Shown piece by piece: positions 3,050 through 40,232 of a stretch of DNA of 49,213 bases. How positions within the stretch are numbered: position 1 is the stretch's first letter; each line of letters opens with the position of its first letter. Both the position numbers and the translations under genes were made by a program. The notes under the pieces were generated by a model, which did not search any database, was not told where the DNA came from, and saw only the letters and a list, made by a program, of their open reading frames with translations. Origin of the DNA: a virus; IMG/VR virus record IMGVR_UViG_3300012090_000181, one strand, 5' to 3'.

Positions 3050-3493
3050 CTATTCCAGTGGCTCGACCGTGTCGACAAGCAGGTTTCGCATCGAGACGTT
3101 GCCATCCGGATGATATTCCATCTTGGCCGCAAATGATACTTTGCACAAGGCGGCGATCAGATCCTCGGAAGACAACTCACCGGAGAAAGGGGTACCGTCA
3201 GCCGATGGAAAGAGCCTATTGACCAACTTGCGCAATATGAAGGAACCGGGGTCGGCCGGAATCCTTACCGTGACCGGTGCCCCCTGATGTTCGCCGGAGC
3301 AGATGACCATCTTCAAGAGCATCAGCCTGGCTCCGCGTCTTTCTTCGGCGAGCAGGCCTTCCTCCCCTTGCTCGTCCTCGATCAGCGTCACCCTGGCGGT
3401 GAAGACATCCGGATCGAGTATTTCATCAGGATCCTTGCAGACAGTTTGTCTGGCAAAAGAACCATAGAGGATGTCGGTGCCGCTGTCCATCAT
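3050..3493 (-). CDS. ILYG-tagged DUF669-like (OB-fold-like) protein
   Basis: Starts MMDSGTDILYG; core FTARV...LLKMVICSGEHQG resembles DUF669 pattern; ATGA overlap with upstream paralog. Confidence 0.65.
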   Translation of the reverse strand: MMDSGTDILYGSFARQTVCKDPDEILDPDVFTARVTLIEDEQGEEGLLAEERRGARLMLLKMVICSGEHQGAPVTVRIPADPGSFILRKLVNRLFPSADGTPFSGELSSEDLIAALCKVSFAAKMEYHPDGNVSMRNLLVDTVEPLE

Positions 3494-3942
3494 AGCGGCT
3501 CCGCCGAGTTGCTGATGAAGCAGTCAACCCATAGTCCGAGCGCCGGATGATCTTCTATATCTACCATGACCGAATACTTCTCGAGACCGTCGGACAACCA
3601 TTTTTCATAACTGATGAAGCGTTGTGTCCTCTCGGAGACAGGATGGACAGCAGCTCCCCCGAAAGCAGCTACCGCCGCGTAGTACTTCTCTTCACCGAGG
3701 CCTTCAATCCGCAGGCATACCTTGACCTTCTCCCCTTCATACGGACCCTCACAGATGGCGAGATCAAAGAACACCAGGGGCTGACCATCCTGGCTCTCGT
3801 CGTAACACAGTTCGGTTCCGGGCCAGGCTTTCACCCGGGCCTGAAAGAAGTCTGCCTCCATAGATCCGTCGCCATGCGTGTTCGAGATCACTCGCGTATG
3901 CTCACGCGTATGCTCACCATAGAGAATCTCCATCGCCTTCAT
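3490..3942 (-). CDS. ILYG-tagged DUF669-like (OB-fold-like) protein
   Basis: Starts MKAMEILYG; FQARVK...SQDGQPLVFFDLAICEGPYEGEKV; TAGAAT 6 nt before ATG. Confidence 0.7.
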   Translation of the reverse strand: MKAMEILYGEHTREHTRVISNTHGDGSMEADFFQARVKAWPGTELCYDESQDGQPLVFFDLAICEGPYEGEKVKVCLRIEGLGEEKYYAAVAAFGGAAVHPVSERTQRFISYEKWLSDGLEKYSVMVDIEDHPALGLWVDCFISNSAEPL

Positions 3943-3991
3943 ATGATGATTCTAGCTCTTGACGATGATCAGGCCTGAAGAGGTCGGCTGG

Positions 3992-4570
3992 TCAGTTCTT
4001 GAAGAACATCCGGTGCAGCCAGGACGGAGCCAACACCTTCTCCGGGATAGTCTGCACTCCGGTGATCGCCCCTATCTGCTTTGACAGGTGGAGTGGTGTC
4101 TCGACCAGCGGTACGCGATAACGCAAAGCAGCTGCCTCGACAAGCTCGTGCAGCGGCTGATCCTCATGGACCAAGGACAAAGCCAGGATCTGTGCCTCGG
4201 CAGCCCGAAATCCTTGCTGATGGATCTGCACGGATCCTCTACCGGCGATGGCCCCGAGCGCGATCGTATATTCACGAACATAGGTTCGCGGGCCTCGCGT
4301 ATCATAACCGAGTTCGATGTAGTTCCAGGCGGTCTCGTAGGCCCGATCCAGTCGATGATAGGCGTTGAAGCCGCAATGGCATTTCGCTCCCGGGGCCTGA
4401 TGCCCGTCGACGGTGGCTTCATATGGGCGCACCATGCCGCCTGGATGACAGGAGGCCCGGTTCACTCCAGGCTGCCAGGCCGGACCTGCAGAGAGCGGGA
4501 GCAGCAACTGATCTCTGACCATCCAGGCGCGAAAGCCCAATGCAGCGTGTGGATAGGTCGGAGCTGCCAT
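3992..4570 (-). CDS. Hypothetical protein with HxAPxxxCxCG motif (paralog of 27082..28014)
   Basis: LGFRAW...GPAWQPGVNRASC...HQAPGAKCHCGFNAYH...GFRA shared with the 27-kb ORF. Confidence 0.8.
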   Translation of the reverse strand: MAAPTYPHAALGFRAWMVRDQLLLPLSAGPAWQPGVNRASCHPGGMVRPYEATVDGHQAPGAKCHCGFNAYHRLDRAYETAWNYIELGYDTRGPRTYVREYTIALGAIAGRGSVQIHQQGFRAAEAQILALSLVHEDQPLHELVEAAALRYRVPLVETPLHLSKQIGAITGVQTIPEKVLAPSWLHRMFFKN

Positions 4571-4745
4571 CAGTGACCAGCTTACTCTTGAAGCAGAATG
4601 CCGGCATTTCTTTCATCTTCTCCTTTCCTGAGATGAGTCCCAAAGCCGGAACTATCTGTCATCCGCCTTTGATCAAGGAGCCTCTGTCCGAGCCGGCTGT
4701 TCGGTGAGTAGGCATCTTCGCCGTTCTGTCTGCTATCATCAGTTC

Positions 4746-5117
4746 ATGGCCAGAGGATGTCAAGAAAGCACGGACACCATCCTCTATGGAGCCACTGGCC
4801 CTCGCGGTCAGGCTTGCGAAGGTGGTATTCCGACGGTGGCGCGGGTGCTGCTCGGCCCCATGATCAAAGGGCCTCATCGGCGCGACTTCAACATAGTACT
4901 GAAGAAGAACGTCGATCTTACAGGCCGAGGATGGGATGCAACCGATACTGATCAGATCCTCAGATTCACCGGAAATATCCGGCGCGCGATCAACTGTGCT
5001 CAAAAGTTGGTTCAAGAAGCCGGAGGCGGCCAGATCCAGGTCTGCAATAACGTAGGAGAGGTGGCAAGCACCTATATCGTGCATCCGGATAGCTCTCGGG
5101 ATCTGGAAAGAGCATGA
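4746..5117 (+). CDS. ILYG-tagged protein with DUF2188-like C-terminus
   Basis: MARGCQESTDTILYG; AINCAQKLVQEAGGGQIQVCNNVG; TATCAT 6 nt before ATG 4746. Confidence 0.7.
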   Translation: MARGCQESTDTILYGATGPRGQACEGGIPTVARVLLGPMIKGPHRRDFNIVLKKNVDLTGRGWDATDTDQILRFTGNIRRAINCAQKLVQEAGGGQIQVCNNVGEVASTYIVHPDSSRDLERA

Positions 5118-5193
5118 TCACGATCATACCCGGTGGGGCAGCCGTAGATGCCAGACGCTTGCGATCTCTGCCATGATCAGCTATACTGAGCGC

Positions 5194-5595
5194 ATGGCGC
5201 GAGGCACCGGCACACAAGCAGATTGTCTTTCGGGAGAAGCCGGGACCAACGCCGATTCTATTCTCTACGGCAGTCTCGCCGCCGCTCCCCGACGAAAGTC
5301 TTCGAGTGCGGTAGCAGGTCTGAACCTCGGCCGGGTCCAGCGTGCCTGCCTGATGCTGTTCAATGAAGCTGAGGAGATCGGTGGGCCTGATTGCCCTGCC
5401 GGGGAGATCGGCAGCATGGCGATCCGTAATCGCATCGAGGCAAAGGGCTTCGGTACCCGCCAGGTCAACCAGGCCTTGAACAGCCTGGAACGCCATGAGC
5501 TGATCAAGTCGGTTCGTTATCCTGACCATTATACTTTCACCTTTGCCCTGACCGAGACCGGCAAAGAGGCGCTGGCAGTCCTGAACCAAAGCTGA
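5194..5595 (+). CDS. ILYG-tagged winged-helix-like protein
   Basis: MARGTG...ADSILYG; VNQALNSLERHELI...FALTETGKEAL wHTH signature; TATACT 6 nt before ATG. Confidence 0.75.
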   Translation: MARGTGTQADCLSGEAGTNADSILYGSLAAAPRRKSSSAVAGLNLGRVQRACLMLFNEAEEIGGPDCPAGEIGSMAIRNRIEAKGFGTRQVNQALNSLERHELIKSVRYPDHYTFTFALTETGKEALAVLNQS

Positions 5596-5632: not shown

Positions 5633-5947
5633 ATGCCCCGGCAACCGCTGGACAGCGAGACCATCCTTTACGGGACCACGCCCTCACGTAAAGTCGTGCC
5701 GTCACTGGTGACCTACCGGGTTCATCACATTCGCTGGGCGCAGGGATGGCGTGTGACGCTACAGCCTGAGATAGCAGGTTGGGTGCCGTCAGATGACGAT
5801 GAGCATCTGGATGTCGCCGATTTTGCCTCGGCTATCAATACAGCCACCCGTATGGTCGAAGCGTCCGGTGGCGGCTTCGTGGAGGTCTGGGGCAAGGACG
5901 GAACCGTCTTCCACACCCGTCGCCGGGTGTCTGTCCCGACCTGCTGA
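5633..5947 (+). CDS. ILYG-tagged protein with DUF2188-like C-terminus
   Basis: MPRQPLDSETILYG; SAINTATRMVEASGGGFVEVWGKDG; TTGCAG-17-TATGAT 6 nt before ATG. Confidence 0.7.
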   Translation: MPRQPLDSETILYGTTPSRKVVPSLVTYRVHHIRWAQGWRVTLQPEIAGWVPSDDDEHLDVADFASAINTATRMVEASGGGFVEVWGKDGTVFHTRRRVSVPTC

Positions 5948-6001
5948 AAATCTCCAGATTTTCAGGTAAATCTGATTGCACTGAAATGCACCGCAATGCA
6001 C
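5944..6001. promoter_or_regulatory. 22-bp palindrome plus three 10-bp-phased TGCAC repeats upstream of the adenine MTase
   Basis: CTGAAAATCT-CC-AGATTTTCAG (5944-5965); TGCAC at 5977, 5987, 5997. Confidence 0.45.
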
Positions 6002-6027
6002 GAAACCCGGCCGGGGTCGCCGCCGTC

Positions 6028-7152
6028 ATGGATACTGACAGGGTGAAGACCTTGTTCAAGTGGCCAGGCGGCAAAGGCCAGGAATTGCCGCAGATCAGCC
6101 CGCGCATCCCCGACTATCAACGGTTCATCGAGCCATTCGTCGGTGGAGGGGCCGTCTTCTTCGATCAGGAGCCGCAGCAGGCAGTGATCAACGACGTCAA
6201 TGCAGTCTTGATCGATGCCTACCAGATGATCGGCGAGAAGCCGAAGGAACTGGAAGCGCAGATGCGGCTCTATGCTGCTGCCCGTAAACAGGCGCAGCTG
6301 TTCGCCGAGGAGTTCGCTCCGAAGGCTCTACCGGTGCAGCGCCAGATGCAATCTCTGGATGATGCAGCTGCCAAGACGGCAGCGCAGAAATGCGCCGGCA
6401 AATATGAAAAGGAGTTCATTGCCTGCTCACAAAACAACTGGCCGCCTTCCAAAGAGATGTGGCCGACGATCGTCAATGTGGTCACGGCCAAGATGATGCG
6501 CGTGCGTAAGCTTCAGGCCAAGGAGAGTAACTGGGCTGATGAAGGCATCCTAGGACAGTTGCAGACAGCGATCCATTCCGGCCTTTATACCTGGATCCGT
6601 GATGCATACCAACCCGCTGATGATCTGAACATCGCCGCCAAGTTCCTCTACTTACGTGAGTTCGCCTATGGGGCGATGTTCCGCTATAACCGTAGCGGCG
6701 GGTTCAACGTTCCTTATGGCGGCAAGTCTTATGACATGAAGAGCCTGACCGACAAGCTTGATTACTGGTTCTCAGATCCCGTGGTCGAGCTACTTGAACG
6801 GACTGAAAAGCATTCATCGTCTTTCGAACAACTGTTCGAGACCGTCGGCTTGAAGTCCGATGACTTCATCTTTCTGGATCCGCCTTATGACAGTGTGTTC
6901 AAGAGCTATGACCAGGCCGCCTTCGAGCGCACGCAGCAGGAACTGCTCGCCGAGTGGTACGCCAAGCTACCCTGCCCGGCGTTGATGGTCATCGGCAAGA
7001 CAGATTTCATCGAAGATTTATATGAGCGCGCTGCCAAGACAAATTCTGAGATATGCATCGAAGAGTACGAGAAGACCTACGCGGCCAACATCAAGCAGCG
7101 CTACGACAGAGGCATCACCCATCTGGCGATCAGAAACTATCCGCTGTCTTGA
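6028..7152 (+). CDS. DNA adenine methyltransferase, Dam/D12 (alpha) class, with a large internal helical insertion
   Basis: FKWPGGKG, FIEPFVGGGAVFF, INDVN, FRYNRSGGFNVPYG, FIFLDPPY; GTG 6043 is an alternative start. Confidence 0.93.
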   Translation: MDTDRVKTLFKWPGGKGQELPQISPRIPDYQRFIEPFVGGGAVFFDQEPQQAVINDVNAVLIDAYQMIGEKPKELEAQMRLYAAARKQAQLFAEEFAPKALPVQRQMQSLDDAAAKTAAQKCAGKYEKEFIACSQNNWPPSKEMWPTIVNVVTAKMMRVRKLQAKESNWADEGILGQLQTAIHSGLYTWIRDAYQPADDLNIAAKFLYLREFAYGAMFRYNRSGGFNVPYGGKSYDMKSLTDKLDYWFSDPVVELLERTEKHSSSFEQLFETVGLKSDDFIFLDPPYDSVFKSYDQAAFERTQQELLAEWYAKLPCPALMVIGKTDFIEDLYERAAKTNSEICIEEYEKTYAANIKQRYDRGITHLAIRNYPLS

Positions 7153-8191: not shown

Positions 8192-9274
8192 TTACTTCTT
8201 CTTGGCGGATTTGCGCTGACGCAGAAGTTGCGTCAACAGTTGCTCTTGCTGCTCTTCACTCATGTCAGCGAAGGCTTCTGTCAGCAGATCAGGGTTGGTG
8301 CTCAACCGATAAGGCTTGCAGGCACTGGCCCAGGCTTTCTTCAGATCATCGTAGGCCAGTCCGTCTTCGAGCAACGGCTCCCAGAAATCAGCCCCAGCCT
8401 TGAACAACTCCTTTGGGAAAGTCTTGCTGAGTGAGGTATTCGGATTTATACCCTCGAAAGCCTGGGCAGCATAGACTTTGATCCGACAAGGATGATCCAA
8501 CAGTGCCAGTCTGGCCTTGAGGACGTTGCTGAGTGCGTGCTTGACATTGTTACTGTCGAGCTTGCCGCTGCTCTTCATCTCGATCAGTTGAAGTTCTCTG
8601 CGTCGTCCTCGAGAGTCACTGATCTCATCGGCGATGTCGATCACGTAACCTTTAGGCTTTGCCTCATACTCAGAGGGGTCGATCGCGCGCAGTTCGGCGA
8701 CGGCGCTGTTTATCATCTCGTTCAATGCAGCAAAAGTCTTTTCTTCCGGTGGTAATGAGGTGAAACGTTCCTTGATCTCATTGGCCAGATCAACGACCCG
8801 ATTTTTCGGCAGGCGCGACCAGATGACCGATTGTTTTGATCCGTCGGCGTAAGTTGCTCCGTAACGCGAGGGTAGCTCCAGCTTGTCGTCAGCGGAGGCT
8901 CCCGGGCCGAACAGATCCTGCGGGCGATGATGCCCTTCCTTCTTGTCGATCAGGACCGTAGCGATGTTCTCCAGGGCAGTCCCCTGCCTGACATGGAGTG
9001 ATTGCACGCTACTGCCGATCTGGCGGGTAGCATCCGAGATCAACGGGATGACCGCCCAGTTGTCAGCGTCAGCCTTGTTGCGCCCCTTGGCTTCCTGATG
9101 GTAATATCTGGCCACCTGATCAAGACGACGTTTCAACCGCTCCCGAGTATTCTTACGCTGTTTGCGATCTGCTTCTGAAGCCTTATCAGCTTGACCACCA
9201 GTACGGCCTCGGTGACGGAGGCTGCTACCAGCCCCGGTAGCGGATTCTGTGATGTTGCTCGCGCCTCGGCCCAT
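8192..9274 (-). CDS. Putative PD-(D/E)XK restriction endonuclease
   Basis: GTALENIA helix, then VIDIADE...LIEMKSSG catalytic-type motif; near and convergent with the adenine MTase. Confidence 0.6.
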   Translation of the reverse strand: MGRGASNITESATGAGSSLRHRGRTGGQADKASEADRKQRKNTRERLKRRLDQVARYYHQEAKGRNKADADNWAVIPLISDATRQIGSSVQSLHVRQGTALENIATVLIDKKEGHHRPQDLFGPGASADDKLELPSRYGATYADGSKQSVIWSRLPKNRVVDLANEIKERFTSLPPEEKTFAALNEMINSAVAELRAIDPSEYEAKPKGYVIDIADEISDSRGRRRELQLIEMKSSGKLDSNNVKHALSNVLKARLALLDHPCRIKVYAAQAFEGINPNTSLSKTFPKELFKAGADFWEPLLEDGLAYDDLKKAWASACKPYRLSTNPDLLTEAFADMSEEQQEQLLTQLLRQRKSAKKK

Positions 9275-9392: not shown

Positions 9393-9758
9393 ATGGCCAG
9401 AGGCAGCGGGATCAAAGAACAGGATGCTTTGTCACCAGAAGCAGTTCTCTACGGACGGCTTCTACCTGGATCGCCGCAGCCCGCCGGCAACTCCGATGAG
9501 CAGTCTCCTGCTCATCTTGGTCAGAACCAGCTGCGTGTGCTGAAGGCGTTGAACTCGTACTCAGGTGAGTACGGCTCAGCGCTCGACATCGACATCCATC
9601 AGCTTGTCGAGCGATCAGGGATCCGAGCCTTGAGTCACATCGGAGGAGTGCTCACAGTGCTGAACTCATTGAAGAAGCACGATCTGGTCACGAGCAACGA
9701 TAGGGAATGGCAGATCACCGAGCTGGGTAAGAAGACGTTGGATACTCATTCACTCTAG
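9393..9758 (+). CDS. ILYG(VLYG)-tagged winged-helix-like protein
   Basis: MARGSG...PEAVLYGRL; VLNSLKKHDLV...WQITELGK; TATGCT 6 nt before ATG. Confidence 0.75.
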   Translation: MARGSGIKEQDALSPEAVLYGRLLPGSPQPAGNSDEQSPAHLGQNQLRVLKALNSYSGEYGSALDIDIHQLVERSGIRALSHIGGVLTVLNSLKKHDLVTSNDREWQITELGKKTLDTHSL

Positions 9759-10039: not shown

Positions 10040-10076
10040 TCACGGTCTTGCCTCCCGCCCCGACTATACTTCTTGC

Positions 10077-10445
10077 ATGGCTCGTGGAGCAGGTATGAAA
10101 GAAGTAACCGGTCTTGCCGCCGAGGACATCCTCTATGGTCGCCTCGATCCGGCAGCCACGCCGACAGACACAGAAGCTCGGACGAAGAGCCGCTACAAGA
10201 AGCTGGGTAATCGCCAGCGCGCAGTCTTGAAGCTGCTCGATCCGGATGACTTCACCGCCCAGCACTCGTCATTACAACTGGCCGTAGATGAGATCCATCA
10301 GAAACAACCAGAAGTCTTCGCCAGCGCCAGCGCCGTCGAGACGGTTCTGTACTCATTACGCGACCGAGAACTGGTCGAGACCAACGGGATCGACTGGAAG
10401 ATCACCGAGCTGGGATCACAGGTGATCTCGGAGCTGACTTCCTAG
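10077..10445 (+). CDS. ILYG-tagged winged-helix-like protein (paralog of 9393..9758)
   Basis: MARGAG...AEDILYGRL; VLYSLRDRELVETNGIDWKITELG; TATACT 6 nt before ATG. Confidence 0.78.
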   Translation: MARGAGMKEVTGLAAEDILYGRLDPAATPTDTEARTKSRYKKLGNRQRAVLKLLDPDDFTAQHSSLQLAVDEIHQKQPEVFASASAVETVLYSLRDRELVETNGIDWKITELGSQVISELTS

Positions 10446-11169: not shown

Positions 11170-12141
11170 ATGGATCCGATCGACTTTGATGACCTTGGCT
11201 TCATGGTGAGTTGCACTCGTACTATTCCCGACCCGGAGACCGAAGAAGAGACTACCGTCTCGGTCGTCCCGATCATCCATCCTATGCTGTACGGTGATCT
11301 TATCGCTGAATACGAGCACCATCCCGACCTTGATGACATCGGGGCCTACATAGAGTTCATGCAAGGCCGGGTCGAGAACGCGCGTGAGGCTGCGATGTCG
11401 TTTGACGATGTGTCTTCCCAGATTTTCCTGGCACCACTGATCAGTTGGGATGAGTACGAATGGGATGAGAGTGCCGATGAAGATGCCGAAGACCGGTTCG
11501 AGCTTCAGATGGAAGCATTGGAACAATGGACACAGGATTGCCCGGCTGAGCTTCTCAGCAGATGCGACGGTCATGTCGTCGATTCTCTCAGAAGCTGGGA
11601 TCTTCAGCAGCTGATCGCGGACCATATGATCAGCAATCATGCGGGCATCACCGATGAGCAGGAATACGTTGATGCTGTCGAAAGCCTTAGCGATGAGATA
11701 TTGGCGAAAGCGTACGCATTTCTTGACCAGGAGATCCGGCCCATGATTCGAGACCATGCCCACCTTACGTACAACGTAACCGTCCAAACAGCTGATCGTT
11801 CGTTTCCGTTCATCGGTACTGTCGGCCTGTCAGATGATGATTTCATCGACACGAATGATGGTATGATGGCGATCGGTGCCGGCGAACATGCACTGTATGC
11901 TGTGGCAGCACTATTGTTGAGACAAGGCAGCGTGATACTGCGGACGATGCAGCTGGATGAGCACGGTAAAAGCAACGAGGATGTCAGCGGATGGATTGTC
12001 ATCGAGAACCGAGTTATTCGTCTGTCCAGCGGTGAGATCTTTTCAGCCCAGTGCACGGCTCCTGACGGTGAGCCGATCCCGCCAGAGCCCGGAGTGAGCT
12101 ATCTCGGCCCGGATACGAATGAAGAAGTTCAGCTCATCTGA
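11170..12141 (+). CDS. Highly acidic hypothetical protein
   Basis: 323-aa D/E-rich ORF; TATACT 7 nt before ATG. Confidence 0.8.
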   Translation: MDPIDFDDLGFMVSCTRTIPDPETEEETTVSVVPIIHPMLYGDLIAEYEHHPDLDDIGAYIEFMQGRVENAREAAMSFDDVSSQIFLAPLISWDEYEWDESADEDAEDRFELQMEALEQWTQDCPAELLSRCDGHVVDSLRSWDLQQLIADHMISNHAGITDEQEYVDAVESLSDEILAKAYAFLDQEIRPMIRDHAHLTYNVTVQTADRSFPFIGTVGLSDDDFIDTNDGMMAIGAGEHALYAVAALLLRQGSVILRTMQLDEHGKSNEDVSGWIVIENRVIRLSSGEIFSAQCTAPDGEPIPPEPGVSYLGPDTNEEVQLI

Positions 12142-14882: not shown

Positions 14883-14958
14883 GTCATAGATCTATTATGC
14901 AACAAAAGAGTAGAATTCGGAAAAATTCTACTCTTTTGTTGCATAATAGATCTATGAC
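14883..14958. promoter_or_regulatory. Perfect 35-bp inverted repeat over the promoter and start of the AbiE-like operon
   Basis: GTCATAGATCTATTATGCAACAAAAGAGTAGAATT-cggaaa-AATTCTACTCTTTTGTTGCATAATAGATCTATGAC; includes CATAAT -10 and ATG 14954. Confidence 0.85.
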
Positions 14959-15709
14959 CATTTCAAGTGGTAGGCCTATATCAGAACCCGATTCCAGACA
15001 GCTTCTGTCAATCATGCAGAATGGTGGCGTGTTCACTGTGGCACATTTTCAGAAAATCTTTCCCTTGTCCAGATATTCGATACTTCGACGCTTGGGACAG
15101 CTAGAGAGGCAAGAAGAGATCGTTCAAATCTCCAAAGGCTCTTATCAAGCTCCCATAGAATCCCTTTCCATCCCTGATGCTGTCAAAGGGATCCTGGATG
15201 ATCTTGATGCTTTTGCTCTGGAGGCTCATGTGACAGGGCTGGATATCCTCATCCCTTACACTCATCAATTCATAAAACATTATCCGCATATCGTCTACGT
15301 TGATCCGCTTCATCTTGATGCCGCTGAGGATGCCCTGGCATCTGATCAGCATATAATAGTCAGATTGAATGCGGCAACCAGGATACCAATGGTAGATAAC
15401 CCGTCGGATGTCATACTGTTGAGAAAACAATCTAACTCAGCGCAATATGGTTGTCATGGGATGCTTGCCCCTCCTGAGAAAGCATGGGTGGACACTCTAC
15501 GCGAAACTCATCGAGGGCACATCAAAATAGAATTCATGGAGCTCGGCCGTATCTTGCACAATCTCATCGATTCTGGGGCCGATCTGAAAAAGCTAAAAAA
15601 CTATGCAAGACGTATGGGGTACCTCGATTGGATTCAATATGCGTCAGGAGAACTGGTTGCACAGAGAGCTCCTGCATTCCAAGCTCTGAAAGCGGGTTAT
15701 GATTCATGA
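14954..15709 (+). CDS. abiEi: Type IV TA antitoxin, AbiEi-like (N-terminal wHTH)
   Basis: GGVFTVAHF...LGQLERQEEIVQISKGSY wHTH; PEKAWVD C-terminal motif; ATGA overlap with downstream NTase; lower GC. Confidence 0.72.
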   Translation: MTISSGRPISEPDSRQLLSIMQNGGVFTVAHFQKIFPLSRYSILRRLGQLERQEEIVQISKGSYQAPIESLSIPDAVKGILDDLDAFALEAHVTGLDILIPYTHQFIKHYPHIVYVDPLHLDAAEDALASDQHIIVRLNAATRIPMVDNPSDVILLRKQSNSAQYGCHGMLAPPEKAWVDTLRETHRGHIKIEFMELGRILHNLIDSGADLKKLKNYARRMGYLDWIQYASGELVAQRAPAFQALKAGYDS

Positions 15710-20015: not shown

Positions 20016-20276
20016 ATGAGCCTGATCTCCCGCATCGACGAGATACTGGATCGCCGGCCCCGCTGGGAGCAGCTCGGTGACACGACCATTGCTTCGGCCA
20101 TCGGGTCGGCAGTCATCGTAGGATCGTTCGCCGGGACGATCGGGGCGATCGTAGGAGCTGTCGCCGGAGCCCTGTTCGGGGCAACGTGGTCATGGCGGCA
20201 CCTGTATCACGGTGGAGCAGAGAAGCGAGCAGCGGCACGGGCAGCGGCGATCAGCTCCCGACAGGAGGAAAGATGA
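20016..20276 (+). CDS. Small glycine-zipper membrane protein
   Basis: GSAVIVGSFAGTIGAIVGAVAGALFG; TATATT 7 nt before ATG. Confidence 0.65.
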   Translation: MSLISRIDEILDRRPRWEQLGDTTIASAIGSAVIVGSFAGTIGAIVGAVAGALFGATWSWRHLYHGGAEKRAAARAAAISSRQEER

Positions 20277-29269: not shown

Positions 29270-29860
29270 TCAACGCGAGCTGTTCATGCGGACGTAAGCA
29301 TGAACATGCCGATGGCGCCCGAGATGGACCAGAAAATGGTCTTCGACTACATCGTTGACCTGGCAACTGTACTGATACCAGCAGGGAATATCCAGATGCT
29401 GCTCCAGGAACCCGACGACATCGTGGTTGATCGTCAGCAGCCTGTTCGGCTCGCGCCGTTCTTTCTTCACCTGGCATTGCACCTGGTCATCGACACGATG
29501 CAGCTCGGTCGGACGGAGAACATCTCCATTCTCGATCTCCTTGGCCAGGATCTTGTTCTGACGCGCGAAAGCAGAGTCGGGTGCCGACATCGGGAAGAGG
29601 CTCTCGTCGCCGATGATCTCCTGCGGCAATGAACGATTGCGCACAGCCCAGAACAAGGTCCCACTCCAGCCATCTTGATCCAGGCAATAATGATCGCCAT
29701 GTGGAAACAGCGTCGACAGCATGACCGGCTCCAGACAATCATGCAGCGCGGCATAGGAATGATCTCCTGGGGTCTTCGGAAATGATCCATAGAGGATCTG
29801 ATCCACTGATGCATTCAGGCCGATATTCTGTGCACCTCCTTGATCACTGATGCCGGTCAT
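29270..29860 (-). CDS. ILYG-tagged protein, 'GxxxWAV' family
   Basis: ...ASVDQILYGSF; GWSGTLFWAVR; HDVVGFLEQHL; TAACAT 6 nt before ATG. Confidence 0.75.
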   Translation of the reverse strand: MTGISDQGGAQNIGLNASVDQILYGSFPKTPGDHSYAALHDCLEPVMLSTLFPHGDHYCLDQDGWSGTLFWAVRNRSLPQEIIGDESLFPMSAPDSAFARQNKILAKEIENGDVLRPTELHRVDDQVQCQVKKERREPNRLLTINHDVVGFLEQHLDIPCWYQYSCQVNDVVEDHFLVHLGRHRHVHAYVRMNSSR

Positions 29861-30029: not shown

Positions 30030-30749
30030 CTAGATCGCTTTAGATCTTGCCTTAGCTGCCGTCTTGCCTTCGGCCAACTTATTGAAGACAAGGAAATACG
30101 AATGATTCTTTCGAGCGTGTACTTGCTTTTTCAATCGGCTGACTCCCGGCGCGTTCTGCCGGACCACGACGAAGAGGTCCCTCGTGTAGAAACCCATCTG
30201 CTCATAGGCATTGATCAGCTCGACATGCGTAAGACACTGACGGTTTGCACTGACTTCGTCCTGGCATTTGACGATGAAGGTTCCGCCCTCTCGTAATACT
30301 CGTCGGGCCTCCGTTCCCGCACTTAGATACAGATCGATAACCGCAGCATGCCATTTCGGCCCTGACTGAGTACTTTCCTCATTAGAATAAAATGACCTGA
30401 ACGCTTTATGGGTGCCGGAGCCCGCCATCTCAGCGGTGTTCTTACGGAATAATCCTTCCATATAAGGCGGGTCAAGAACCACACTGTCTATACTGCAATC
30501 GTCGTAGGGCAGATCTCGACAATCCACGCCAGTAGCAATATCTGTAGCTAGGAGTTTGTAATCGGTGTCGCTGATGTTCCTCCAAAAGACACCGGACCCG
30601 TAAGTAACATCCGCAACCGTGGAGCCTTTAGGCACATGTAGTCCCAAAACTTGGGGGAAAATCTCAGCGTTTCCAGCTATAGACGCAGACAAGACGAGAT
30701 CTGTGGTCGGCTTTCCTCCCTGCGTTCTTTTCACCTTTTGCGCGGCCAT
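30030..30749 (-). CDS. Orphan amino (N4/N6) DNA methyltransferase-like protein
   Basis: [15 protein letters not shown]-binding loop; VVLDPPY; [18 protein letters not shown]; lower GC. Confidence 0.85.
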
Positions 30750-30868: not shown

Positions 30869-31519
30869 TCAGTATTCGATGAAGTCGAAGCGGACGTATC
30901 CCAGCAGGTTTCCATCATCCAGCTTGAGTAGAAAGCCATTCGCTGCTTTCTCCTCGGTCATCAGCACCTTGAACTCTCCTCGGCCTTGCAACGTCTGCTC
31001 GATGAAAGCCACCTGGTCGAGATTGGCCATACCCAGATCAGCCCCGGAAACCTGGACCCGCAGGCGCGGATAGAACCCATGAGCATCCTGATGCCGATAG
31101 ATATGCGCGTCGGCCAACGCCGGCAGCGATCCATCGGAAGGCTGAAACATCAGGGCAGCATGAACCCTGGTGAGCTCTTGCGTATACAACGCGAGCGGGT
31201 CGAGTTTGCGTATCGCTCCGAGGATCTCGGCCGGCCTCGGTGCTGCATCGGTCACAGCATCAACACGCGCTTCCGGATGTGACAGCGCTTCTGCCAGGCT
31301 TTCGGCCCGGACCGCCCAGCCGCTGGTGCCGACAAAACCACCTGGCTGCTGCCAGTAGTAATCAGCATGCTTGAAAAGCTGCGAGTAGGCGATCTCATCC
31401 GGGAACCAATCCGGCCACAGAGGAGACACGCTTACTGCCCCTGAACGAGCGTGATCGCCATAGAGGATGCTGTCACTGTTCGCATTCCTCGGCTTCGCCA
31501 TTTCAACTCCTTCGGGCAT
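30869..31519 (-). CDS. ILYG-tagged protein, 'GxxxWAV' family
   Basis: ...NANSDSILYG; GFVGTSGWAVR; LDQVAFIEQTL; NLLGYV; TATGCT 6 nt before ATG 31519 (31501 alternative). Confidence 0.75.
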   Translation of the reverse strand: MPEGVEMAKPRNANSDSILYGDHARSGAVSVSPLWPDWFPDEIAYSQLFKHADYYWQQPGGFVGTSGWAVRAESLAEALSHPEARVDAVTDAAPRPAEILGAIRKLDPLALYTQELTRVHAALMFQPSDGSLPALADAHIYRHQDAHGFYPRLRVQVSGADLGMANLDQVAFIEQTLQGRGEFKVLMTEEKAANGFLLKLDDGNLLGYVRFDFIEY

Positions 31520-31568
31520 GCGCGCAGCATAGCAGCTGCTTGCCGAAGATCGCGCTTCAACGGGAACA

Positions 31569-32162
31569 TCAGAGCAACCAACCACTGGTGTAACCGATCA
31601 GATTCTTGTTCTTCTCGTCCCAATAGATCAGGAACTGGATAAGGTCATTGTCCGATTCCCAGTCTTCCTCGCCGGGAAGGAGCATCCAGCTACCGGGCCA
31701 AGCGGCATTCTGTTCGATGAAGGCCATCTGATCCGTACTTGCCTCGCGAACCACGCCGCTGCCGCTGAAATAACACTTCCGGTCATCATGCTCGATATGG
31801 GTATGAGCCTCGACTCGGACCAGAGTGTCCTCTCCGACGGTCTCTACCCTCCGCTTGACGTTCTCGACCATCTGCGCATAACCTTTATTATGCCCTGGCC
31901 CCAGCTCCCGATAGCCGCCAGGAGTGGTGCGTAATCCGCCGAGATCACCGAACTGCGACGGGCCGAACCAGACGGCCCATTCATTGGCACCGATGAAGTC
32001 ATGGTAATCTACCCAATAGCAGGCATCGCCGGCGATCAGGCGAGAACACTCGACCGGATGATCTCGTAAGATGCCCGCCAGCGCCTCCGGCTGTGCCGGC
32101 CGAATACCGGCGTTGCCATAAAGGATACGATCTCCGTCTGCTCCACGACCAGGCATGGACAT
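31569..32162 (-). CDS. ILYG-tagged protein, 'GxxxWAV' family
   Basis: MSMPGRGADGDRILYG; DFIGANEWAVW; TDQMAFIEQNA; NLIGYT. Confidence 0.75.
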   Translation of the reverse strand: MSMPGRGADGDRILYGNAGIRPAQPEALAGILRDHPVECSRLIAGDACYWVDYHDFIGANEWAVWFGPSQFGDLGGLRTTPGGYRELGPGHNKGYAQMVENVKRRVETVGEDTLVRVEAHTHIEHDDRKCYFSGSGVVREASTDQMAFIEQNAAWPGSWMLLPGEEDWESDNDLIQFLIYWDEKNKNLIGYTSGWLL

Positions 32163-34120: not shown

Positions 34121-34669
34121 GTGAGTGAGGATCATACATCTGCTGATGACAAGCCGGTGGAAACGGAGCTGCCAGCCGATGAGCAGCGTGAAACTGCTGT
34201 CGAGGCATTGAAAACCCGGTTACAGGACAAGCTGATCAGCTTTCCGGATGATCCGCCCAGGTTCGTCCCGACCGAGACCGAATACGAGCATGACGGTAAG
34301 AACCGGGTTCGCTACTGGATGCAGCCGAGTGAGTTCGGGGCCTACGTCCATTATCGGGATTATCGACAGAAGGTACATCAGTTGCTCCATCCTATTGGCC
34401 TGGCAGCCCATGCCTGGGATGGCCATGATGGCGAAGGTGATGATCTGGAGACCTGGCGGGTCAATATCGAGCATGATCTATTTGATCCGGATGGTGATTT
34501 TGTCGTCGTCCTCGCGGTCGATTACTCCGAGGAAGTGGGGGCCAAATCAGTTCTTGCCCTGGCAACCCCGACCCCGGAGCAGGCCCGGGAGATGGCGGAT
34601 GCCTTGCGGGTCTATGCCGATATGGCCGAGAGACAGAACCGACAACGCCAAGATGAGAATGAGAGCTGA
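34121..34669 (+). CDS. Hypothetical protein
   Basis: 182-aa ORF; TATGAT 6 nt before GTG. Confidence 0.72.
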   Translation: MSEDHTSADDKPVETELPADEQRETAVEALKTRLQDKLISFPDDPPRFVPTETEYEHDGKNRVRYWMQPSEFGAYVHYRDYRQKVHQLLHPIGLAAHAWDGHDGEGDDLETWRVNIEHDLFDPDGDFVVVLAVDYSEEVGAKSVLALATPTPEQAREMADALRVYADMAERQNRQRQDENES

Positions 34670-34671
34670 TC

Positions 34672-35541
34672 TTGACCGGTGGCTTGCAACCCGAGCGATC
34701 TGAGCCGGGAGGCGCATCGGCCGACACTTCTCGCCCCAGCGTCTCGGTCTGGATCGGACTTGTCGCTGTCGTCACCTACTTATCGCTCCTGTTCATCTTC
34801 TCCAAGATCGGCGCAGTGCATTATGATGCCTTGTCCTCGTCGGAACACGATGTCTTCTGGGGCCTGATCTTTCCGGTCGGATCGACCGTGATCTGCATGA
34901 TCGTCCTGACCAGCTACCTGCGCCTTTGGCGGCCGGTGCTGTTTGAGACCCGCTCATCCGACACCAAGGGCTGGGGCGCGATAATCGTGTTCGTGGCAGC
35001 CGCTACCGTGACCCTGGTCGGTGGGAATCTCGGGGCCTGGCCTCCGGCGACGATCATCATGCTGGTGATCGGCACCTGCCTGGTCGGCTTCGGCGAGGAG
35101 CTGACGACCAGAGGGTTGCTTTTGACGGCCTTGCGCCGCCGATACGCCGAGATATGGGTCTGGCTGATCTCCACCGGAGCCTTCGCGGTGATGCATTCGG
35201 TCAACCTACTCAGCGGGCAATCGCCGGGAAAGACCTTGGCCCAGGTCGCTGGCACCTTCTGTCTCGGCTCGGTGCTCTATGTCTCCCGGCGGGTCAGCGG
35301 GACACTGTTCGTACCGATGGCCTTGCATGCCTTCTGGGATTTCTCGGTGTTCATCAACCGAGGCCCGACTGTCGGTGGAGCCGCAGCCGCTTCGCCATTG
35401 GCTTCAGGCTTGGTCTTCGCCGCCGTCACCCTGGCGGCATTGTTCATCATCCAGCTGGGTTCCGGACAGCATCAGCCGAGGCTGGAGGCACCCGATGCAT
35501 ATCTGCCCGAGGAGAGCCTGATCACCGAGACCGGAGCCTGA
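34672..35541 (+). CDS. CPBP-family (CAAX/Abi) intramembrane glutamic endopeptidase
   Basis: GFGEELTTRGLL, FAVMH, ALHAFWD; multiple TM helices. Confidence 0.9.
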   Translation: MTGGLQPERSEPGGASADTSRPSVSVWIGLVAVVTYLSLLFIFSKIGAVHYDALSSSEHDVFWGLIFPVGSTVICMIVLTSYLRLWRPVLFETRSSDTKGWGAIIVFVAAATVTLVGGNLGAWPPATIIMLVIGTCLVGFGEELTTRGLLLTALRRRYAEIWVWLISTGAFAVMHSVNLLSGQSPGKTLAQVAGTFCLGSVLYVSRRVSGTLFVPMALHAFWDFSVFINRGPTVGGAAAASPLASGLVFAAVTLAALFIIQLGSGQHQPRLEAPDAYLPEESLITETGA

Positions 35542-36760: not shown

Positions 36761-36798
36761 GATTGACGTCGGATAACCTATCTGTTAGGATGGAGACC

Positions 36799-37140
36799 AT
36801 GAGCTTCAATCGTGAAAATATCGTCTGGCCGAGCAAAGACGGAAGCTGGAATCGAGGCTTCTTCACTTTCTACAACACCAGCTCCGGTGAGGACCACGAT
36901 CCGGAGTGGGACGTGGACTATGACTGGAACAGCTTCTGGTGGGTCAGTACCGGGCACGCTACCGAAGACGAGGCTCATGCGGCCTGGGACGGGGCCAATC
37001 CTGGCGGTTGTCAGCTGGTTCATGCCTACGCCGACGATCCGGAGTGGTGCGATCAGTTGGACAAGATGGCCGCTGATCTGCAAGAGTACCAGCGGCAGCG
37101 CAAGAAAGAAAACTGGCCGGTCGGCCGCACCCTCTACTGA
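36799..37140 (+). CDS. Trp/Asp-rich hypothetical protein (paralog of 38249..38620)
   Basis: MSFNRENIVWPSKDGSWNR...EWDVDYD...AWDGANPGG...LDKMAA. Confidence 0.82.
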   Translation: MSFNRENIVWPSKDGSWNRGFFTFYNTSSGEDHDPEWDVDYDWNSFWWVSTGHATEDEAHAAWDGANPGGCQLVHAYADDPEWCDQLDKMAADLQEYQRQRKKENWPVGRTLY

Positions 37141-38105
37141 GCAGCGCCGGACTGATCGGCTTCGATCTTATTCAGGATCGCCCTGCCGACGAACTCGGCC
37201 AGATTGACCGGGACGGCATTGCCGATCATCTGCTCAAGGTTGGTCTTGCTGATCGGCTTATGTTCCTGGCCATCGGCATCTACATAGGCTGATGGTAGCC
37301 AGTTGAAATCTTTGGGAAAGGTCTGGATATAGCTGCGTTCGATCGTCGTCAGCGGGCGTAATCCCGGGGTGGTATGCGGCGCGGTGTCACCACGATGCCC
37401 TTTATAGCCCTTGGGCAACGGCCGATTGACCCCACGGACGGTAGGCGATGGCTCGTCTATGCTGTAGATCCCACGCCGATTGTAGTTGCGTGGATGCCGA
37501 TAATAGTGTTCGATACCGAGTGAGCTACCCAGGTAGTCGCGAATAGTCATCGACCTTTTCGAGAATGCCTGCTCCAGATAAGGGCGCAGAGCATCATCGT
37601 CCCCGGCTCGCTCGGCAATCATGAACAAGCGTTTGCGCTTCTGTGGCACCCCGCAGCGGGAAGCATCGAGGACGATCAGAGTGATCCCGTAACCGGCAGC
37701 TCTGATCTTGGCGACGGCGCTCTGATAGGTCGGGCTTTTCAGCGCCTGATCGACATTCTCCATGATCACCCATTGCGGTCGTAAGGAGATGACGACGTCT
37801 GCAAACGTCGGGGTCAGATTCGCCCTGGCTCCATCATGATCGCGCAGACCGGCCGAGGAGAAATCCTGACAGGGCGGCCCACCGGCGATGACCGTGGGTT
37901 TATAAGCAGCTATCTCTGAATAATCGCCTGACAGCGAAGCCATGTCCGCGTCGATCATCGGGTGATCAAAGTTGGCTCGATAGACCTCGATCGCCGGTTG
38001 CCAATGATCGAAAGCGGCGACTATCTTGAACCCGGCCTGTTCCAGGCCCTTGGACAGACCGCCACAACCGGCGAAGAGATCGACCGTATCCAGTATAGGC
38101 ACCAT
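37134..38105 (-). CDS. DNA (cytosine-5) methyltransferase, orphan
   Basis: DLFAGCGG, GGPPCQDFS, MENV, PQKRKR, RPLT, IGNAV; TRD YYRHPRNYNRRGIYSIDEPSPTVRGVNRP recalls GRCGYC-type enzymes (from memory). Confidence 0.95.
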   Translation of the reverse strand: MVPILDTVDLFAGCGGLSKGLEQAGFKIVAAFDHWQPAIEVYRANFDHPMIDADMASLSGDYSEIAAYKPTVIAGGPPCQDFSSAGLRDHDGARANLTPTFADVVISLRPQWVIMENVDQALKSPTYQSAVAKIRAAGYGITLIVLDASRCGVPQKRKRLFMIAERAGDDDALRPYLEQAFSKRSMTIRDYLGSSLGIEHYYRHPRNYNRRGIYSIDEPSPTVRGVNRPLPKGYKGHRGDTAPHTTPGLRPLTTIERSYIQTFPKDFNWLPSAYVDADGQEHKPISKTNLEQMIGNAVPVNLAEFVGRAILNKIEADQSGAAQ

Positions 38106-38248
38106 CAAACCGATGATAGCCGGCCGCCGAGGTCTGATCACTGCTTTGGCTTGACCTCGTCCGGCATCTCTGCTAGACTGGTCGAGAACCTATTCCCGCC
38201 AAGCTCAACTTGGCTTCGAGAAAACGACAGACAAGAAAGCGCAGACAA

Positions 38249-38620
38249 ATGAGCCTCAATCGTGAGAACATCATCTGGCCTAGTAAAGACGGCACCTGGA
38301 ACCGGGCCTTCTACGATTTCACCCCGGAAGACTGGAAGGATGATTACGATTACGAGTGGGACGTCGATTACGATTTCTCCCGCTTCAACTGGGTCTGCAC
38401 CGGACTGCCGACGCAGGAGGCTGCTGAAGAGGCCTGGGATGGGGCCAATCCCGGTGGTTATGAAATCATCGAAAAGTATCATGGCAACGCCAAAGAATGC
38501 AGACGCCTGGACAAGATGGCGGCGACGTTCAAGAAAGAAGCCCGTAAAGAACGCAGTGCTCGTCCTTATCAGTCGGTAAGTAGGCTAAGTCCGGTCTATA
38601 ACTACCGCAGTCGCTGGTAA
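38249..38620 (+). CDS. Trp/Asp-rich hypothetical protein (paralog of 36799..37140)
   Basis: MSLNRENIIWPSKDGTWNR...EWDVDYD...AWDGANPGG...LDKMAA. Confidence 0.82.
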   Translation: MSLNRENIIWPSKDGTWNRAFYDFTPEDWKDDYDYEWDVDYDFSRFNWVCTGLPTQEAAEEAWDGANPGGYEIIEKYHGNAKECRRLDKMAATFKKEARKERSARPYQSVSRLSPVYNYRSRW

Positions 38621-38626
38621 GCTGAA

Positions 38627-38932
38627 GTGATGAGCAGCTATTCTCCTCCTGATCCGTCTGCACTGGAAGCCGACTTGCTCGATTACCTGACCAGGCAAAC
38701 CCGGGTCGTGGATTTCTTGGAGATCAGTGATCATCTGTTCAATCTCTATCTCGATCCGGCCGGTGAGATGGGAGAGAAGGACTTCGAGCGCCTGACCTTG
38801 TTCGAGGATCATCAACTACCAGACCTGCTCGATCATCTTGTCGCAGATGGCAAGCTGCTGGTGTCCGCAGATGCGGACGGGTTTTGTAATCGCTACCAGA
38901 TGGCAGGCGCTGTTCCCGTGGCCGGCAACTGA
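38627..38932 (+). CDS. Small winged-helix-like hypothetical protein
   Basis: LLDYL...FLEISDHL...LLDHLVADGKL...RYQM. Confidence 0.6.
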   Translation: MMSSYSPPDPSALEADLLDYLTRQTRVVDFLEISDHLFNLYLDPAGEMGEKDFERLTLFEDHQLPDLLDHLVADGKLLVSADADGFCNRYQMAGAVPVAGN

Positions 38933-39129
38933 GCACTACATGGTCATCTCTTCGAGGGCGGCCTTGACCGGCTCCTTGGCGAGGCCGGTGCGCCGAGATC
39001 TGGAGCCTTACGGCTCCTTACCGAATTCTCGTAAAACCTCGTAAGAAGCAGCCAAGCTCCCCAGTCCTCGGGAGAACCTGAGTTCTCGGCGGCACCCGGC
39101 GAACAGCGTCAAGATGTGCTATGATACGT

Positions 39130-39362
39130 TCAATCGGGGGCACGCCCCCGGAGGAGCATGAATATGTGGAGCTTTCAGAAAAGCAGCGCATCAAAAATGC
39201 TCAGCCAATAATGGTTGATCGCAGGACAAACAGGAGTTCTTACCAGGGCGGGCAAGAAATGCTTGTCGGTGAATCTCGGAAGTCCTAGGATCGTATCCAT
39301 TTTTGATTGAGGTAAAGGCCCTGGAAACTATGAATGCCCCGTCATTGCGGCGGGGTATTTTA
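39130..39362 (+). ncRNA. Putative structured non-coding RNA
   Basis: TGCTATGAT extended -10 (39117-39125), no long ORF, many complementary segments, terminal intrinsic terminator. Confidence 0.55.
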
Positions 39363-39363
39363 T
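39333..39363 (+). terminator. Rho-independent terminator
   Basis: AATGCCCCGTC-attgc-GGCGGGGTATT followed by further T residues. Confidence 0.75.
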
Positions 39364-39782
39364 CGACTCAGGCCGGTGGTTCGGCAGGTAGATGGTTCAG
39401 CAGCTAAGCAGGTAGGCTAAGCAGAATAGCAGCTAAGCACATATTTTGCTGCCGAGATCCGTGGTTTCTCACCGCCTTGCAACGAACTCGAAGCTGTGCT
39501 ATACTGATGGAGATCCACGGGTCGTAGTCGACTGCGATCCCAGGAGGAACATATGTTCAGCGGAAGCTGGTTGGTCCGGAACAGGATGGCGCTCTTTTGA
39601 GAGGGTCCGGCAAAAACTGATTTGTCTTCGCGGTCCATCCGACCCGGTACTGTATCCACTTCACGTCATAAGCGGCCCTATAGAATGCCCCGGCTATCGG
39701 GGCATTCTCATGTCTGAAGGAGGAACAACGATACTGTTTGAGCAAGCCGTATCACTGCCTACGGTATAAGTCTGCATCGTCC

Positions 39783-40232
39783 TCAACTGCTGGTGCGATC
39801 CCGGCCCAGGAAAGCAGTCACCTTACCGACCAGTTCCTCGGAGGCGTCCATCGCTGCCTGATCCAGTGTTGCCATCACTCTCAGACGACCGACGCTCGGA
39901 GAAAACAGGTCCTGATAGACGGCAGCCACGTCTATGCGAGCTGTCGCCTTGATCGTCGGCCAAAGGAGCTGAGACAGCTGCTTCAGCATCTCATCGGCAT
40001 CGTCTTCCTCAGCGGCCAAGGGGATCTCTGCCAGCAGGCGTCTGACCGGATAGGACCCATCCAACACCTGAAGATCGATCACCAGCTTGCGCCTGGTGTT
40101 TCCGCTGCTGCCGATGGAGTCGGTGAAACGAGCGCCGATGACATGAGCCACAAGCTCCTGCTGAAATGCCGCCTTTGTCATCGCCGGCAGACTGCCATAC
40201 AAGATGTCATCGGCGCCCGGAGAACTGTTCAT
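39783..40232 (-). CDS. ILYG-tagged DUF669-like protein
   Basis: MNSSPGADDILYG; VAHVIGARF...SSG...KLVIDLQVLDGSY; TATCTT 6 nt before ATG. Confidence 0.7.
   Translation of the reverse strand: MNSSPGADDILYGSLPAMTKAAFQQELVAHVIGARFTDSIGSSGNTRRKLVIDLQVLDGSYPVRRLLAEIPLAAEEDDADEMLKQLSQLLWPTIKATARIDVAAVYQDLFSPSVGRLRVMATLDQAAMDASEELVGKVTAFLGRDRTSS

Follow-up and report, generated by a model that had tools for sequence, protein, structure and literature searches.

The IMG/VR virus record IMGVR_UViG_3300012090_000181 is a stretch of 49,213 nt, referred to here in its full length as the window, and it encodes a set of small proteins that share an acid-preceded [IV]LYG peptide close to the N-terminus, hereafter the tag. 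The tag is very probably a recognition motif that acts at the level of the peptide and serves some shared reader, and it has the look of a docking or address label that has yet to be described. A six-frame scan of the window returned 17 matches to [IV]LYG, whereas mononucleotide shuffles averaged 1.55 and never exceeded 5. Fourteen of the 17 lie in frame, 6–23 residues past the most plausible start of open reading frames (ORFs) of 104–216 aa; the other three fall in short non-coding frames. Among the 71 genes called in the window by a self-trained codon score, 14 have [IV]LYG within the first 45 residues, compared with an expectation of 0.08, and beyond residue 45 the motif is absent from all 71 proteins. 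Aspartate or glutamate stands at −1 or −2 in every one of the 14. The original prediction, made from the letters of the window, had placed the motif at 14 positions, each behind an acidic residue, and had tied its case to an N-terminal excess over background; all 14 positions were recovered exactly and in frame, and the acid and the excess are those just given. It had also held that membrane, methylase and defence proteins are without the tag, which agrees with its absence from the pilin, methylase, membrane and AbiE-like proteins.

Flanking DNA of the same 1.10-Mb contig (ENA ERZ27241870 k141_311054, in which the window spans 905,014–954,226) was added, so that the annotated context comprises ~87 kb, the window and both flanks. 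The flanks contribute 14 further N-terminal tags, two downstream of an array of pilin-like genes and 12 in the 30 kb upstream, giving 28 N-terminal tags in ~87 kb, or roughly one gene in five. All 28 are in the coding frame, and 27 begin within residues 6–25, the 28th (L009:1003–1476) standing outside the positioned set. With one C-terminal copy, in a zinc-ribbon protein, the total is 29; for 71 proteins, we estimate from composition that ~0.02–0.07 such hits would be expected within the last 15 residues.

Anatomy, translation and codon use of the tag

Aligned position by position (first 21 tags), the tag has the extended consensus A-[DE]-x-[IV]-L-[YF]-G-x3-4-R, frequently with M-[AG]-R-G ahead of it; alanine is at −3 in 12 of the 21 and aspartate or glutamate at −2 in 19. 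Core composition, charge and hydropathy were assessed over 27 tags. The first core residue is isoleucine in 23, valine in three and leucine in one; the core leucine and glycine are invariant; and the aromatic position holds tyrosine in 26 and phenylalanine in one. Tyrosine is replaced by phenylalanine in two copies overall, a tolerance that suggests aromatic packing rather than hydroxyl chemistry. Downstream, a recurrent arginine occupies G+4 or G+5, in many cases within G-P-R or A-R, and about half of the tagged proteins have the M-[AG]-R-G start, located 4–18 residues ahead of the core. The stretch that precedes the tag carries a net charge of 0 to −3.

AlphaFold2 (AF2) models of a winged-helix member (10077) and of a family A member (30869), both described below, place the tag in a predicted intrinsically disordered N-terminal tail: the bodies fold, and the predicted local distance difference test score (pLDDT) is below ~50 for residues 1–35 and 1–34, respectively. 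Behind the tag follows a flexible linker rich in proline, arginine and serine, such that the 20 residues after the tag contain 9.1% proline versus 5.1%, 9.1% arginine versus 5.4%, and fewer aromatics. The linker that the original prediction placed behind the tag is borne out by composition and by the AF2 models. A long linker in this position fits a tether better than a cleavage site. None of the 27 tails scored has a hydrophobic signal core, the maximal 12-residue Kyte–Doolittle mean being ≤1.55, compared with 2.9–3.75 for the real signal or transmembrane segments of the window (pilin, DNase and the 40400 protein).

The starts of the genes bear on whether the tag is translated. In 23 of the 71 genes the called start is preceded, at a distance of exactly 6 nt, by the end of a TAnnnT hexamer, as against 2.3% of all ATGs, and this −10-type box is often extended to TGCTAnnnT (for example at 5185–5193, 10068–10076 and 31520–31531); the organism of the window appears, from these boxes, to make leaderless mRNAs. 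The small genes are mostly transcription units of their own, on both strands. In 12 of the 14 tagged genes a TAnnnT box is located 6–8 nt upstream of the ATG in front of the tag; of the remaining two, one is translationally coupled to its upstream gene and one has an AGGAGG site. The leaderless arrangement is found in 12/14 tagged versus 15/57 untagged genes (p = 7e-5), the untagged starts being crudely called. The −10 box at a fixed 6 nt before the upstream ATG supports translation of the tag, and the boxes in 12 of 14 genes argue against true starts downstream of the motif, an alternative named beforehand.

Codon use within the tag is restricted. Leucine is encoded by CTC or CTT in 25 of 27 tags, as against 28% in window genes overall (p = 5e-9, first 21 tags), and specifically by CTC in 10 of the 14 window tags, as against 17% in the called genes (p = 1e-5), where CTG is commonest (44%). 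The wobble position of the isoleucine or valine codon is always C or T, tyrosine is TAT in 19 of 26, and the glycine wobble is mixed, as in genes overall. The resulting synonymous pattern is RTY CTY TAY GGN, and an exact 11-mer, ATCCTCTATGG, is present in six of the 14 window tags. Twenty-eight in-frame copies out of 28, together with conservative replacements, point to selection on the peptide, and the codon pattern points to an additional constraint on synonymous sites. The original prediction had taken mixed codons as a sign of peptide selection: the codons are literally mixed and the peptide does appear to be selected, but the synonymous sites are not free (CTY in 25/27, pyrimidine wobble). 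This constraint may reflect a signal that leaderless transcripts carry close to the 5′ end of the RNA, an operator or codon-specific decoding. Coding in an alternative frame from the T-ATG-G inside the tag was rejected as its source, as no real ORF follows (3–31 codons, in one case 107).

The tagged genes, their bodies and their surroundings

The tagged genes of the window, and the gene with the C-terminal copy, are as follows; proteins are referred to below by their first coordinate.

3050–3493 (−): DUF669-like tagged gene; TDILYG at 3461–3472; coupled, its start overlapping the stop codon of the gene upstream
3490–3942 (−): DUF669-like tagged gene; MEILYG at 3916–3927; leaderless, TAGAAT 6 nt before ATG
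4746–5117 (+): member of the DUF2188-like pair; MARG...TDTILYG, tag at 4779–4790; leaderless (TGCTATCAT)
5194–5595 (+): winged-helix tagged gene; MARGTG...ADSILYG, tag at 5260–5271; leaderless (TATACT)
5633–5947 (+): member of the DUF2188-like pair; SETILYG at 5663–5674; leaderless (TGCTATGAT)
9393–9758 (+): winged-helix tagged gene; MARGSG...PEAVLYG, tag at 9444–9455; leaderless (TATGCT)
10077–10445 (+): winged-helix tagged gene, modelled with AF2; MARGAG...AEDILYG, tag at 10128–10139; leaderless (TATACT)
18025–18417 (+): divergent winged-helix-like tagged gene; ADAVLYG at 18064–18075; leaderless (TATACT)
19610–19960 (+): divergent winged-helix-like tagged gene; AEQILYG at 19649–19660; TAAACT 8 nt before ATG
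20273–20671 (+): divergent winged-helix-like tagged gene; GDAVLYG at 20300–20311; AGGAGG ribosome-binding site before ATG
29270–29860 (−): family A tagged gene (~200 aa, alpha/beta); VDQILYG at 29786–29797; leaderless (TGCTAACAT)
30869–31519 (−): family A tagged gene, modelled with AF2; SDSILYG at 31457–31468; leaderless (TGCTATGCT)
31569–32156 (−): family A tagged gene; MPGRG..GDRILYG, tag at 32115–32126; leaderless (TAGGAT)
39783–40232 (−): possible third DUF669-like tagged gene; ADDILYG at 40194–40205; leaderless (TATCTT)
384–905 (+): zinc-ribbon protein with the C-terminal copy, …DPDEILFGGTAAEN* at 873–884, after an acidic tail; ATC CTC codons, as in N-terminal tags

Two orphan proteins have partial likenesses to the tag. 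The very acidic 323-aa protein at 11170–12141 contains MLYG at residue 39 (…VVPIIHPMLYGDLI…) and, being without the Ala-Asp context, was left out of the count; the untagged 360-aa protein at 8192–9274 starts with MGRGAS…, that is, M-[AG]-R-G without the ILYG core, and its gene is leaderless (TAGGAT).

When the bodies behind the tag were compared by BLAST, they fell into the groups 3050, 3490 and perhaps 39783; 4746 and 5633; 29270, 30869 and 31569 (family A); and a winged-helix group of 5194, 9393 and 10077, to which 18025, 19610 and 20273 belong more distantly. Between families, the only columns aligned by hhalign were 12–21 tag columns. By these comparisons the tag is modular, placed before unrelated bodies of at least four families. 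The original prediction's division into four families and its idea of a modular short linear motif both stand up, the latter as a translated tag before unrelated bodies, and the possibility named beforehand that all are one family is disfavoured by an alignment confined to the tag.

The identity of the bodies is less uniform. Those of 5194, 9393 and 10077 gave sub-threshold Pfam matches. The AF2 model of 10077, built on six paralogues, has a winged-helix body (pLDDT ~80) whose top Foldseek matches in the PDB were all winged helices of the MarR/MepR/RosR type (E ~0.02, template-modelling (TM) score ~0.5), and all three bodies are predicted to be winged helices by fold (MarR/PadR-like). For the bodies of 3050, 3490 and 39783, Pfam hmmscan returned no DUF669 (PF05037) match at E ≤ 0.1, and the ESM Atlas gave leads to DUF669 clusters (feature score 0.88–0.89, TM 0.39). 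DUF2188 was likewise undetected by hmmscan in the 4746/5633 pair, its label coming from reading the sequence by eye. Both domain labels of the original prediction therefore lack backing from hmmscan, DUF669 retaining the weak Atlas leads. DUF669 proteins are phage single-strand-binding proteins, and prophage forms carry a DDDIPF docking tip (PMC13687109). The suggestion that the tagged bodies are nucleic-acid-associated is thus upheld for the winged helices, by fold, and persists as a weak lead for the DUF669-like bodies.

Family A was modelled with AF2 from nine sequences as an alpha/beta fold with residues 1–34 disordered (predicted TM score (pTM) 0.67). Foldseek found no match for it in the PDB; in BFVD it matched uncharacterised phage proteins of ~150–230 residues (E 5e-3 to 7e-2), and in the Atlas one unnamed Bacillota cluster (TM 0.5). 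An exhaustive aligner (VIA-wide) listed mostly DNA sliding clamps, at Z 3.3–4.0, below the trusted level. We did not adopt an assignment of family A as a sliding clamp, given that Z does not exceed 4.0 and that such an assignment finds no backing from Foldseek or the Atlas. When the body of a family A protein (A8, residues 36–216) was co-folded with a tag segment (A6), run without controls, the score was 0.00, a value that counts neither for nor against binding. Searches of the tagged and large unknown proteins against Pfam, NCBIfam, PADLOC and PHROGs gave nothing above threshold, and nothing meaningful came from a PDB sequence search with queries A5 and A8 (A8 being family A) or from tblastn of 3490–3942 against phages.

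Relatives of the tagged proteins are scarce. A word-based search of 5.8 billion proteins found none for family A or the winged-helix family off this contig. A HMMER profile search of family A among 1.84 billion representatives recovered seven proteins, five of them on this contig and two, P0008 and P0009, on a 1,250-bp JGI contig from another sample. P0009 begins with MIPAAEDILYG and so has the tag; P0008, 49% identical to the 30869 protein of the window, is without it as called. A word-based search with P0009 returned itself or its own contig only. The original prediction had proposed that homologues elsewhere be checked for the tag, and P0009 has it, whereas P0008, with its start as called, does not; the N-terminus of P0009 shows that the tag has been kept in at least one related organism. 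No relatives emerged from a scan of genome contigs with the pilin and of metagenome contigs with family A, megablast of 25 kb against plasmids and phages gave no DNA match, and no tRNA or Rfam family matched in the window. On this distribution, the tag appears specific to one lineage.

Turning to the neighbourhood, an ABC ATPase gene is 61–63% identical to genes of Streptomyces and other actinobacteria; nearby genes encode DUF2510, a YkuD transpeptidase, CysS and a Y-family polymerase, along with a surface protein that exceeds 3,000 residues and contains CLIPPER (PF01345) repeats. The source looks like an uncultivated actinobacteria-like bacterium, and the stretch is more suggestive of a tag-rich island within a chromosome than of a phage or plasmid, the nearby cysteinyl-tRNA synthetase gene making the contig chromosome-like. 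That gene follows those for the Y-family DNA polymerase (L009:7700–8746) and a BRCT-like protein (L009:5104–5931), ~21–24 kb upstream of the window. The BRCT-like protein ends …PALFGSN*; the polymerase, inspected as a guide to the clamp-binding motif of this lineage, ends right after its little-finger domain, without a C-terminal clamp-binding tail. No reader, secretion, capsid or conjugation gene emerged from the annotation of the ~87 kb, in which Pfam, NCBIfam, PADLOC and PHROGs recognise hardly any protein; the original prediction's routing of the tagged proteins to one partner, with the options that it listed, gains no backing from gene content.

The window and its flanks have several further features. 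A tandem array of at least five type IV pilin-like genes (43161–49213 and L004:6889–8145; 418–482 aa) encodes proteins with near-identical N-terminal methylation helices and divergent C-terminal halves, of which Pfam sees only N_methyl. Four DNA methyltransferase genes lie within the 49 kb (5986–7152, 23423–25027, 30030–30749 and 37134–38141), of the D12 N6-adenine, Eco57I/TaqI-like, N4/N6 and C5-cytosine classes, and Pfam calls no restriction partner. The C5 methyltransferase is flanked on both sides, on the opposite strand, by untagged paralogues (36790–37140 and 38249–38620; …NRENI[VI]WPSKDG[ST]WNR…). Overlapping genes at 14897–16917 form a weak AbiEi/AbiEii-like pair of antitoxin and nucleotidyltransferase toxin (PADLOC E 1e-4 and 2e-3). 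Finally, a CPBP/Rce1-like intramembrane protease (34672–35541) directly follows a leaderless 182-aa acidic protein (region 34121–35541); it was considered as a tag-processing enzyme, and nothing links it to the tag.

Possible functions of the tag

We tentatively favour a reading in which the tag is a docking peptide for a DNA-associated hub. The disordered tail, the flexible linker, the unrelated bodies, the lack of a signal core, the tolerated change of tyrosine to phenylalanine and the C-terminal copy together give the architecture of a tethered docking motif. The tag would stay uncleaved. A single partner common to all clients would offer a hydrophobic pocket for the Ile-Leu-aromatic triad and the acid beside it, and a wide variety of small proteins could in this way be tethered to the same hub. 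That the tag binds a partner we infer; that the partner is DNA-bound or clamp-like is speculative. A DNA-associated hub, used as a tool-belt, is the favoured version because the recognisable bodies are DNA-binding or phage-replication-like; the model for such a tool-belt is phage T4, in which gp43, gp55 and gp33 share [ST]LDFL[FYL] to ride the gp45 sliding clamp.

Several observations weigh against this docking reading. The ~87 kb contain no recognisable hub, and the clamp likeness of family A comes solely from the matches at Z 3.3–4.0. At least 28 clients in 87 kb are far above the number for any known phage clamp. The bacterial clamp-binding register is Q-L-x-L-F (QL[SD]LF), which the tag does not fit, and its acid lies one position further from the triad than in T4. 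Nearly all copies are N-terminal, which an address signal would explain equally well, and a pure peptide model leaves the constraint on synonymous sites unexplained.

The strongest competitor, which we regard as somewhat unlikely, is an address signal for export, injection or packaging, read by a contractile injection system, a secretion ATPase, a capsid or a nanocompartment shell. Such a signal would account for the placement of 27 of the 28 N-terminal tags within residues 6–25 and for clients that are expanded, lineage-specific orphan families clustered in one island. The bipartite look of M-[AG]-R-G plus an ILYG core would suit it too, as would the copies reading ILYG-S-L/F, which resemble the h-x-h-G-S-L core of encapsulin cargo peptides. 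However, Pfam detects no secretion, injection, capsid, protease or shell gene in the ~87 kb, the tails have hydropathies far below those of real signal segments, the bodies look like DNA binders typical of the cytoplasm, and the motif stands at a C-terminus in one copy.

A degron or processing site, which we consider unlikely, would be recognised by a protease or its adaptor, such as a Clp- or Lon-type unfoldase, or cut by an endopeptidase near Y-G or after the downstream arginine, leaving the small regulators unstable or co-matured. Bacterial degrons usually consist of a hydrophobic patch in a disordered tail, at either terminus, which accommodates the C-terminal copy; the invariant glycine, the arginine at G+4 or G+5 (often G-P-R or A-R) and the encoded CPBP/Rce1-like protease could likewise be fitted to it. 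However, no residue is conserved right after the glycine, a long linker behind a cleavage site would be purposeless, and CPBP proteases, whose signals are C-terminal or close to the membrane, have no link to the tag. No cytoplasmic protease or adaptor gene lies nearby.

It is very unlikely that the element acts mainly as nucleic acid, either as a 5′ RNA signal of leaderless mRNAs or as an operator in the first 20–75 nt, with the peptide a by-product or second layer. The restricted leucine, isoleucine/valine and tyrosine codons beside a free glycine wobble, the recurrent exact 11-mer and the excess of leaderless starts speak for such an element. Its distance from the 5′ end, however, varies from 15 to 72 nt; every copy is in the coding frame; the substitutions (I/V, Y/F) are conservative in protein; and the flanking alanine, the acid and the downstream arginine are conserved as amino acids with varied codons. 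No alternative-frame ORF is present. Least probable of all is that the tag has no common function and is a 5′ module of promoter and first codons, passed on by descent or by recombination, that marks young island genes: some tags have identical nucleotides in common and the families are lineage-restricted, but the tag-flanking codons and promoters differ outside the core, the four core residues are invariant amid diverged surroundings, and a second organism, with an ortholog only 49% identical, retains the tag.

Returning to the recognition motif, a more elaborate proposal, which we think somewhat unlikely as a whole, is that the tag is the client half of an undescribed sorting or tool-belt system of an uncultivated actinobacteria-like lineage. 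The small proteins that use this system would number more than 50 and make up between about a fifth and a third of the gene content of an island of at least 90 kb, its reader would belong to no known family, and the tag would be dual-coded, its synonymous sites acting on leaderless mRNAs. In cells and phages, shared peptide tags route many proteins through one machine, and each newly understood tag—signal peptides, clamp-binding, capsid-targeting and cargo-loading sequences—has exposed a machine and a portable engineering handle. The present tag is unusually sharp and frequent; it belongs to an organism known from metagenomes alone and stands on proteins for which billions of database sequences contain no homologue. 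Dozens of orphan genes would gain a function together if a reader were found, and that reader may be a new DNA hub or part of a new sorting route. The constraint on synonymous codons may point, as a separate matter, to a signal within the coding region that is peculiar to leaderless mRNAs.

Comparison with known short peptide systems

Some familiar classes can be set aside. Sec and Tat signal peptides have a hydrophobic h-region within their first 30–50 residues, those of Tat also a twin-arginine box; a signal of this kind was rejected for want of an h-region, hydropathy reaching at most 1.55 in all 27 tails. Double-glycine leaders have Gly-Gly/Ala/Ser at the cleavage site and are handled by an ABC transporter with a C39 peptidase; a leader of this kind (C39/PCAT) was rejected because position −2 is aromatic (tyrosine, once phenylalanine) and not glycine, alanine or serine, and the only nearby ABC gene has an ABC_tran domain without a peptidase domain. 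The N-terminal ClpX signal of lambda O, EPIYA or Src-substrate sites, YxxPhi sorting signals and SspB-binding sites differ from the tag in register.

N-terminal address signals, namely the T4 capsid-targeting sequence, the signals of extracellular contractile injection systems (eCIS) and type III secretion systems (T3SS), and encapsulin cargo peptides, resemble the tag as disordered N-terminal signals of 10–50 residues on unrelated cargo. Unlike the tag, they lack a sharp consensus or have a nearby machine, none of which was detected in the ~87 kb. Signals of eCIS and T3SS are far less sharply conserved than ILYG. The cargo-loading peptide of encapsulins has the core h-x-h-G-S-L; G-S-L/F follows the core in a minority of tags, and Pfam finds no Linocin/encapsulin gene in the ~87 kb of the 1.10-Mb contig. 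The T4 capsid-targeting sequence is removed at L/I-x-E by the prohead protease; no conserved x-E follows the aligned tags, and neither Pfam nor PHROGs reveals a gene for a capsid, a portal, a terminase or a prohead protease in the window or its flanks.

Two systems involve DNA-binding proteins. The ParA-activating peptide of ParB, an aliphatic and positively charged motif with a central arginine in an unstructured N-terminus, is sufficient as a peptide (PMC12462528). The tag is like it in being a short conserved motif in a ~35-residue unstructured N-terminus of DNA-binding proteins, about half of which also start with M-[AG]-R-G, but the comparison fails on charge, the tag core being flanked by Ala-Asp/Glu behind a pre-tag stretch of 0 to −3, and the Arg-Gly of the tag is present in about half of the copies at a variable distance of 4–18 residues. 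The C-terminal tip of the single-strand-binding protein SSB (DDDIPF) likewise combines a run of acidic residues with an Ile/aromatic tip for docking, carried on the flexible tail of a protein that binds DNA (PMC13687109). Unlike the tag, it occupies the extreme C-terminus and uses the free carboxylate; moreover, SSB presents one motif protein to many pocket partners, whereas many motif proteins here imply one pocket.

The closest verified design is the clamp-binding epitope of phage T4. The T4 C-termini, as read from AF158101, are SLDFLFG* in gp43, SLDFLYEAND* in gp55 and TLDFLL* in gp33. They are highly similar, hydrophobic and acidic, stand on divergent flexible linkers and are interchangeable between proteins (PMC2988020). 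Against [ST]LDFL[FYL], the tag has in common a hydrophobic residue, leucine, an aromatic and glycine with a nearby acid, and it has the architecture of clamp-binding motifs: a short hydrophobic and acidic peptide in a disordered tail, a flexible tether and unrelated bodies. The copy near the C-terminus of the zinc-ribbon protein (384–905) recalls gp55. The tag differs from the T4 epitope in being N-terminal in 28 of 29 copies, in having its acid at −2 rather than −1, in its additional conserved alanine at −3 and downstream arginine, and in having dozens of clients rather than three or four. The tag is new to the literature searched, in which no paper mentions the motif; shared terminal recognition peptides are known as a kind, and there is a real chance that the reader of this one is new.

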